Source of the DNA: Escherichia phage VB-EcoM-WM
Strand: one strand, 5' to 3'
Sequence record: PQ014731.1
DNA: 64,000 nucleotides
Below are positions 58,404 to 58,690 of the stretch, one piece after another. Made by a program: the position numbers and the translations under genes. How positions within the stretch are numbered: position 1 is the stretch's first letter; each line of letters starts with the position of its first letter. The notes beneath the pieces were generated by a model. The model ran no database searches and was not told where the DNA came from. It saw nothing but the letters and a program-made list of their open reading frames with translations.

Positions 58404-58690
58404 AAATGATAGTGGCTTCGTGCAGAAATGCACGTCGAATAACTTCGTTAATTGCTGGAAAATCCTTTATGAAAGGACAATCAGCAGCCAAGCCTGAATA
58501 TTCAGGAAGGTTCAACGACTATCCCGAGAGGGAGTAGGGCGCAAGCTTATGGCGCTCGAAAAGCGAAGCACCCTGAGATGGGTGGTGATATAGTCTACTC
58601 TGCATGGTAACATGCAGCGGCACGTAAAGGTGCGGAGGGTGGTGTTGCGACCAACCTTGAATATAAGGATTCGATAATCCTGTATGCCTG
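58404..58690 (+). mobile_element. ORF-less group I-like intron in terminase large subunit gene
   Basis: 287 nt between exons; upstream exon ends in U, intron ends in G; P7-like CGACTA/TAGTC pair; GAAA and GTAA tetraloop hairpins. Confidence 0.6.

Follow-up and report, generated by a model that had tools for sequence, protein, structure and literature searches.

In the 64,000-nucleotide (nt) stretch of Escherichia phage VB-EcoM-WM DNA that we analyzed (record PQ014731.1; the whole of it is called the window below), the gene for the large terminase (TerL) is split by an intron. We consider it very probable that positions 58403-58668 form a group I intron of the subgroup IA type, devoid of any meaningful open reading frame (ORF-less). 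The genome is that of a Vequintavirus, i.e., an rV5-like coliphage, and 127 Vequintavirus (rV5-like) records are at least 90% identical to the region by megablast. A preliminary description of the DNA had already proposed a self-splicing group I intron at this place. The proposal is now supported by a covariance model, by covariation across 63 related introns, by the restoration of a 515-amino-acid (aa) TerL, by a U.G pair and a terminal G at the intron ends, and by the strict association of an ACC codon before the insert with the presence of the intron. The limits first assigned to the element, i.e., 58404-58690 (287 nt), had to be revised.

TerL starts at the ATG 57660, and its unspliced frame is closed by the UGA at 58407-58409 (ORF 57660..58409). 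The ORF list bears out the initial observation that the gene is interrupted and that its upstream and downstream parts lie in different frames. The division into an ATPase half and a nuclease half is roughly right: exon 1 carries the two Walker motifs of the ATPase domain, A (GAAGSGKS) and B (CFDEG), and the insertion point, at Ile248 of 515 residues, interrupts the conserved motif FIGATI|FDNP not far from the end of this domain. In Pfam terms, the site falls in the C-terminal stretch of Terminase_6N (residues 25-294), ahead of Terminase_6C (residues 394-489). When the 266 nt from 58403 to 58668 are removed, the gene encodes a 515-aa protein without a single mismatch to the TerL of the intron-less phage EPFV3 (100% identity).

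The preliminary description had suggested a covariance-model search as a check, and this search shows that a group I model fits. The Rfam family RF00028 (Intron_gpI) matches positions 58393-58617 on the + strand with 92.7 bits, for a gathering score of 50 (E-value 1.7e-22), and the match spans the full model (1-253 of 253), without truncation. Over the whole 64-kb window, Intron_gpI is the sole non-tRNA family above threshold, next to five tRNA matches (55399-56119). The intron RNA has a minimum free energy (MFE) z-score of -3.99, and none of 200 dinucleotide shuffles folds as well. The MFE fold of the whole intron, which misses the native core because of the P3/P7 pseudoknot, was used for this z-score only, and the helices were taken from the Rfam alignment and from local folds (table below). 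The hairpins with GAAA and GTAA loops that had drawn attention at first correspond, by these two means, to P2 (58419-58434) and P9 (58600-58617), and the CGACTA (58516-58521) and TAGTC (58591-58595) strands pair as P7 in the Rfam alignment. The element had also been called ORF-less, and rightly so: its longest sense ORF has 43 aa and no Pfam match, and neither the ORF list nor Pfam reveals a homing endonuclease gene within the intron.

Table. Observed and predicted features of the TerL locus and of its intron (positions in the window; all on the + strand).
Feature	Positions	Strand	Description and evidence
TerL exon 1	57660..58402	+	247 codons and first 2 nt of Ile248; ORF list, Pfam, exon lengths
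In-frame UGA	58407..58409	+	two codons into the intron, within the P1 loop; ends unspliced exon 1 translation
Group I intron, ORF-less, 266 nt	58403..58668	+	starts UAAAUGAUAG, ends GAAUAUAAGG; Rfam RF00028, blastn breakpoints, junction table of 13 alleles
TerL exon 2	58669..59473	+	third base of Ile248, then FDNPVCLRDNPEYL...; stop 59471-59473; nuclease domain; Pfam, blastn
P1	58397-405 / 58409-417	+	Rfam alignment and local folds
P2 hairpin CGUGCA-GAAA-UGCACG	58419-24 / 58429-34	+	62% of cells paired, 6/6 pairs with double changes
P3	58443-49 / 58562-68	+	Rfam and local folds; 6/7 pairs covary
P4	58453-58 / 58481-86	+	Rfam, local folds, covariation
P5	58463-68 / 58472-77	+	Rfam, local folds, covariation
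P6	58487-89 / 58509-11	+	local folds; P6/P6a 85-91% of cells paired
P6a	58493-97 / 58502-06	+	matches family consensus GCCAAGCCU...AGGAAGGU
P7 GACUA / UAGUC, guanosine-binding helix	58517-21 / 58591-95	+	matches Rfam model consensus
P7.1, GAGA loop	58522-25 / 58530-33	+	local fold; ~93% of cells paired, all pairs covary
P7.2	58537-42 / 58552-57	+	local fold; ~93% of cells paired, all pairs covary
P8 hairpin CACCC-UGAGAU-GGGUG	58569-73 / 58580-84	+	92% of cells paired, 5/5 pairs covary
P9 hairpin CUGCAUG-GUAA-CAUGCAG	58600-06 / 58611-17	+	86-93% of cells paired; Rfam model ends here
P9.1	58620-23 / 58630-33	+	local fold; weaker, covaries
P9.2	58637-42 / 58652-57	+	local fold; loop with UUGCGA (family-conserved UAGCGA-like motif)
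Terminal guanosine (omega-G)	58668	+	after family-conserved GAAYAUAA motif; junction table, consensus

The relatives used for covariation were collected by scanning IMG/VR for both P7 strands at a suitable spacing, which gave more than 120 contigs at the least. The best 60 of the more than 120 segments were aligned with the present intron and with two Vequintavirus introns. In these 63 introns, 80.6% of the cells are paired; with the 3' partners displaced by 1-3 columns, 35-43% are. The covariation score reaches 0.419, against 0.075-0.125 in the controls, and none of 500 shuffles attains it. Double changes are found in 60 of the 70 pairs, and P3, P4, P6, P8, and P9 are all supported. P7.1, P7.2, P8, and the five outer pairs of P9 are each about 93% paired, double changes being seen at nearly all of these pairs; the two inner pairs of P9 are 86% paired, and even P9.1 and P9.2, with 66-75% of cells paired, show double changes at every pair. 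Covariation across these related phage introns thus supports helices P2 to P9.2 as predicted, P7 aside. The strands of P7 are invariant in this set by construction of the search; its pairing is present and agrees with the consensus of the model. Between P7 and the 3' strand of P3, a 38-nt insertion relative to the Rfam model folds into two hairpins, P7.1 and P7.2. The combination of P7.1 and P7.2 is a hallmark of subgroup IA in the Michel and Westhof scheme. The presence of both helices therefore points to an intron of the subgroup IA type, an assignment at the level of IA as a whole since Rfam has a single group I model that makes no distinction between IA1, IA2, and IA3.

An insert of this kind could be a decayed remnant that no longer splices, TerL being then a pseudogene of a defective phage or an artefact of assembly. 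It is devoid of an endonuclease gene, and introns without an ORF may be on their way to loss. We nevertheless regard this as very unlikely. All the core helices are intact, and the RF00028 score is as high as that of the intron of the cultured phage RudolfGeigy (92.7 versus 95.6 bits); the intron shares 98.9% identity with its counterpart in the cultured phage JEP1; and the two exons, which are intact, specify a protein identical to a functional TerL. Since RudolfGeigy and JEP1 are cultured phages that carry the ORF-less intron in an essential gene, it must be removed in vivo in these phages.

The boundaries of the intron follow from comparison with intron-less relatives, whose uninterrupted gene reads ...FIGATIFDNPVCLRDNPEYL... 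and whose protein reads ...FSFIGATIFDNPVCLRDNPEYLAFLEGL.... By blastn, 57600-58403 and 58670-59500 align to adjacent bases of EPFV3, and this break at 58403|58670 means that the insert has 266 nt and not 287 nt. The preliminary description had placed its 5' end 1 nt away, which leaves the protein unchanged, and its 3' end 22 nt away: the G at 58690 that was taken for the last base of the intron is an exon base, the terminal G being G58668, and the join FIGATI-RDNPEYL should read FIGATI-FDNPVCLRDNPEYL, seven conserved residues (FDNPVCL) having been lost in the earlier version. An intron of 287 nt has some appeal, given that the 58403/58691 join is in frame, that the two junctions follow a U and a G, and that the product, of 508 aa, is free of stops. 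We find it extremely improbable all the same. The 21 nt from 58670 to 58690 are kept as codons for FDNPVCL in every intron-less allele and, more generally, in every allele, with synonymous variation only, intron carriers included. The segment is also conserved in more distant TerL proteins, where TI[F/Y/K]DN is uninterrupted in those of CB7 (60% identical) and J2-1 (36% identical). Finally, the joined coding sequence (CDS) of RudolfGeigy has a length that fits 1548 nt and not 1527 nt. Two other in-frame joins, 58402/58687 and 58402/58690, were rejected, as the intron-less allele shows FDNPVCL. With these boundaries, and after removal of all the inferred introns, each of 13 alleles gives exons of 426, 317, and 805 nt and an ORF of 515 aa.

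Within these boundaries, we infer that the splice sites are U58402|U58403 and G58668|A58669. At the 5' end, the exon sequence AACCAU (58397-58402) would pair with the internal guide GUGGCU (58412-58417), and this site is preferred because the Rfam alignment pairs U58402 with G58412, the U.G wobble of P1, U58402 being aligned to the conserved U of the model. It is also preferred by analogy with intron 1 of rV5, whose P1 is laid out alike (the exon strand has 6 nt and the UAA...UA loop 9 nt, and G and the guide sequence follow) and which ends ...GAACAUAAACG|A. At the 3' end, the choice rests on the fact that the intron then ends in G, following group I rules, and that FFH2, navn, and 241Ecol014PP, which are intron-less here, read AT|A at the Ile codon. 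The junction GAAUAUAAGG|A is common to all seven intron-carrying alleles.

According to the mechanism that we propose, the transcribed RNA would fold into the P1-P9.2 core, and the exon end ...ACCAU would pair with the guide sequence of the intron to make P1. A free guanosine held at P7 would then attack after U58402, and the freed exon 1 would in turn attack after the terminal G58668. Ligation of the exons, as ACC AU|A UUC, would yield the mRNA of the 515-aa TerL. Ribosomes engaged on unspliced RNA would halt at the UGA 58407-58409. The spliced RNA is expected to read ...GGCGCAACCAU|AUUCGAUAAUCCUGUAUGCCUG..., with UUCGAUAAUCCUGUAUGCCUG directly after ...ACCAU(U/A), and the spliced TerL to contain the junction peptide ...SFIGATIFDNPVCLR.... 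Exon 2 has no start codon of its own and unspliced translation ends at a stop; hence, the production of a functional TerL should depend on splicing.

The same organization could also be read as a split gene, not spliced at all, whose ATPase and nuclease halves are translated separately and then assemble. The pieces are annotated as separate CDSs in the records of JEP1, HMD-6, YP-6, and HdK5. This is barely credible in view of the gene itself: the frame of exon 2 is shut by the TAA 58664-58666 and opens only one codon ahead of the junction, and its earliest ATG, GTG, or TTG codon is the TTG 58736, from which a separate product would lack 22 conserved residues. Moreover, a split gene would account neither for an insert that is a full-scoring ribozyme nor for its traceless absence from about three quarters of the close relatives. 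The codon usage next to the insert argues in the same direction. The Thr codon ahead of the 5' splice site is ACC in all seven examined alleles with the intron and ACA in all eight examined ones without it, and C58400 of ACC pairs with G58414 of the guide in P1. This correlation is hard to explain if the insert is not spliced, and it is sensible only if the P1 pairing matters. Selection for splicing predicts it; co-conversion during transfer of the intron predicts it equally. In the Ile codon, the last position is occupied by A in all the intron-carrying alleles and by T, C, or A in the intron-less ones.

The chance that the interruption is bypassed at another level, by an intein, a translational hop, or a group II intron, is practically negligible: nothing specific speaks for it beyond the other interruptions known in phage genes, the in-frame stops (UGA 58407-58409, TAA 58664-58666) and the change of frame rule out an intein, 266 nt far exceed the 50 nt hopped in T4 gene 60, and no group II intron family scores above threshold in the Rfam scan of the window, where Intron_gpI is the only family found apart from the tRNAs.

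Several points weigh against the 266-nt group I intron as we describe it. That splicing occurs in this phage, and at this site, is deduced from sequence comparison. P7 lies outside the covariation test, the relatives having been collected with a pattern that fixes both of its strands. The junction is ambiguous by 1 nt in the DNA, as 58402|58669 and 58403|58670 lead to the same protein; the choice made above follows group I rules and the analogy with rV5 intron 1, and intron-less FFH2 reads AT|A at this codon. P10 is weak by inspection, with at most three pairs and one skipped base. Lastly, a hairpin, GGAUU-CGAU-AAUCC (58667-58680, + strand), bridges the 3' splice site, reaching from the final GG of the intron to the codons for FDNP; it is a possible competitor for recognition of this site, but may be incidental.

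The TerL intron is an already described element, known in rV5-like phages since 2013. The TerL introns of rV5 were published by Kropinski et al. 2013 (PMC3606486), who acknowledged the assistance of D. Shub in locating the intron and cited a single precedent, the intron of the LL-H terminase. In the rV5 record (DQ832317), TerL is a three-piece join named 'ORF64ABC', with the HNH homing endonuclease ORF65 inside. Intron 2 of rV5 occupies the same site of the same gene, with identical junctions (ACCAU|UAAAUGAUAG...GAAUAUAAGG|AUUCGAU). It has the same ribozyme core, with 93.8% and 96.7% identity in the two blastn pieces made of the intron arms and the adjoining exon. On both grounds, i.e., insertion site and identity in both arms, the present intron is best regarded as an orthologous copy of rV5 TerL intron 2. 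The two differ in that the rV5 copy is longer (979 nt), a 732-nt segment with a 232-aa HNH ORF in the P6 loop replacing 58489-58509 (P6a). As P6a of the present intron matches the family consensus, we read the ORF-less copy as a form that looks never to have been invaded by an endonuclease gene rather than as a deletion derivative. A further difference is that rV5 has an additional intron, intron 1, at the Walker B site, and that this first TerL intron is absent from the window (expected at ~58085/58086, D-E-G|T).

ORF-less copies 95-99% identical over their full length are found at the same site in RudolfGeigy (MZ501102), in JEP1, and in the 'Campylobacter' phages C7, C9, A112b, A147, A135, and C11. 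These copies have 268 nt, compared with 266 nt here, and their exon backgrounds differ. The configuration of C7, C9, and A112b is the one seen here (intron 2 only), and the present genome is at most one more carrier of this ORF-less arrangement, which stands unannotated in those three. In RudolfGeigy, the ORF-less intron is already annotated as a spliced, joined CDS; in the BASEL collection, intron boundaries were annotated by comparative genomics (PMC8594841). Introns were also predicted in TerL and in the DNA polymerase gene of LL12 (PMC6658697).

Other introns of TerL genes are more remote. Intron 1 of rV5 is a group I intron of the same gene (84.9 bits with RF00028) and shares with the present intron the GAAYAUAA-N-G 3' end, the P7 strands, and the P9 sequence. 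The Walker B introns of rV5 and CB7 are inserted about 107 codons upstream, after D-E-G in rV5 and between D and E in CB7 (residues 140/141), and the copies of the CB7 and HdK5 types carry endonuclease genes (an HNH ORF in CB7). For CB7, a member of the same subfamily, splicing of the TerL group I intron was demonstrated by reverse transcription PCR and cDNA sequencing (PMC7344957). We compared the CB7 intron with ours by position only, and rejected it as an orthologue, its Walker B site (residues 140/141) not being residue 248. J2-1 seems to resemble CB7: exon 1 measures about 130 aa there, and the break in the matches to its TerL, at residues 127/128, overlaps the Walker B segment. The contig L081, which matches the present intron, was likewise rejected as a carrier of an orthologous TerL intron, since the interruption lies in nrdA. 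LL-H, an unrelated siphovirus of a Gram-positive host, provided the first described case of a phage whose large terminase gene is interrupted by a group I intron.

Beyond these phages, blastn links the core to introns of other TerL genes and, with 70-77% identity, to the introns of SPBc2 (SPbeta) bnrdE, of the Yersinia phage Berlin DNA polymerase gene, and of Vequintavirus nrdD. Introns of the bnrdE, T7-like DNA polymerase, and nrdD types, which lie in nucleotide-metabolism and replication genes and presumably belong to subgroup IA, agree with the TerL intron in their P7 strands, in the layout of P7.1/P7.2, and in the P9 region; they differ by their host genes, and many of them have endonuclease ORFs. 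Phage T4, with its td, nrdB, and nrdD introns, is not among the blastn matches listed, and our literature search found no subgroup assignment for the SPbeta bnrdE intron. More than 120 IMG/VR viral contigs, at the least, contain the exact pair of P7 strands, TTCAACGACTA...GATATAGTC, and several of them have two or three copies. The intron lineage sharing this exact pair is very widespread in phages.

Among Vequintavirus phages, the TerL introns have a patchy distribution. The length classes, resolved on fetched example records, are as follows. TerL is without intron in EPFV3, ECP32, phiWec189, and FFH2. Intron 1 alone, at the Walker B site, is present in HMD-6 and ECP26. Intron 2 alone, at the Ile248 site, is present in its ORF-less form (266-268 nt) in the phage studied here and in C7, and in its 979-nt form, with the 232-aa HNH ORF, in YP-6. 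Both introns are found in rV5, RudolfGeigy, A147, and HdK5. Intron 1 has 318-320 nt in rV5, RudolfGeigy, A147, and HMD-6; the version of HdK5, ECP26, and navn, of 883 nt, includes an endonuclease VII-like ORF. Among 51 full-length records sampled at even spacing, 25 genes were intron-free, 17 had intron 1 only, and 9 had intron 2. At an identity of at least 95%, intron 2 occurs in about 30 of the roughly 127 close records, 8 of these copies being ORF-less, and its carriers span different exon backgrounds.

The exons of this phage show 22 differences in 1548 nt from those of intron-less EPFV3, compared with about 70 from those of each of the intron carriers C7 (71), rV5, and RudolfGeigy. Seven of the 22 differences lie no more than 55 nt from the intron site (CDS positions 690-763, i.e., ~58349-58688). 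This clustering looks like a short co-conversion tract, which suggests that the intron was acquired or lost by recombination. The patchy distribution and the clustered flank differences are compatible with transfer or with loss by recombination; they are no proof of homing. None of this is new in kind. The locus makes a textbook example: the group I intron interrupts an essential late gene at its most conserved motif, and three intron states, i.e., absent, ORF-less, and endonuclease-bearing, stand side by side in one genus. With such a natural series, one could ask by what route endonuclease genes enter introns, and how introns come to spread or disappear when phages infect a cell together.

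A free-standing HNH gene (56169-56510, + strand; 113 aa; Pfam HNH; PHROG 2255) is located 1.9 kb upstream of the intron, directly after tRNA-Met, in the place of the tRNA-Pro of rV5 and of most relatives. It could mobilize the ORF-less TerL intron in trans by 'collaborative homing', a process reportedly proposed for the psbA intron of a cyanophage and a neighboring free-standing endonuclease. Full-length copies of the gene with at least 99% identity are found in 13 of 200 matching phage records, and 11 of these 13 also carry intron 2. Trans mobilization, if true, would explain this frequency, compared with about 30 of about 127 for the close relatives overall. We think it very unlikely, and the evidence leans against it: a single set of unverified records accounts for 10 of the 11 co-occurrences, the HNH and intron loci are physically linked, and the two genomes that have the HNH gene without the intron have ordinary intron-less sites. 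In these two genomes, no distinctive 'immune' target site was found, the site being identical to that of FFH2, which is without the HNH gene. A kinship between this HNH protein and that of the rV5 intron was also considered and rejected (BLASTP E-value 0.27; different PHROG families).

The main value of these results is practical. Automated annotation often leaves TerL in pieces, with two or three 'terminase' fragments in place of one gene, or predicts spurious ORFs within the intron, and the correct junctions allow the 515-aa protein to be annotated as a joined CDS. In the JEP1, YP-6, HMD-6, and HdK5 records, the exon pieces bear the names 'terminase' or 'hypothetical'. The JEP1 record has a 37-aa antisense ORF called within the intron and begins 22 nt into exon 2. 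Eighteen 'Campylobacter phage' records (MG0656xx, UNVERIFIED), classified under Vequintavirus, are 95-96% identical to the TerL region of this phage, and their 'Campylobacter' host label looks doubtful. Finally, a 99-nt tRNA-like gene lies at 55868-55966 (+ strand), between tRNA-Ser and tRNA-Thr. It scores 37.5 bits with the Rfam tRNA family and has a 26-nt insertion in its variable region; ARAGORN reports it as 'tRNA-???', with a 4-base anticodon, and it is unannotated in rV5 and YP-6.

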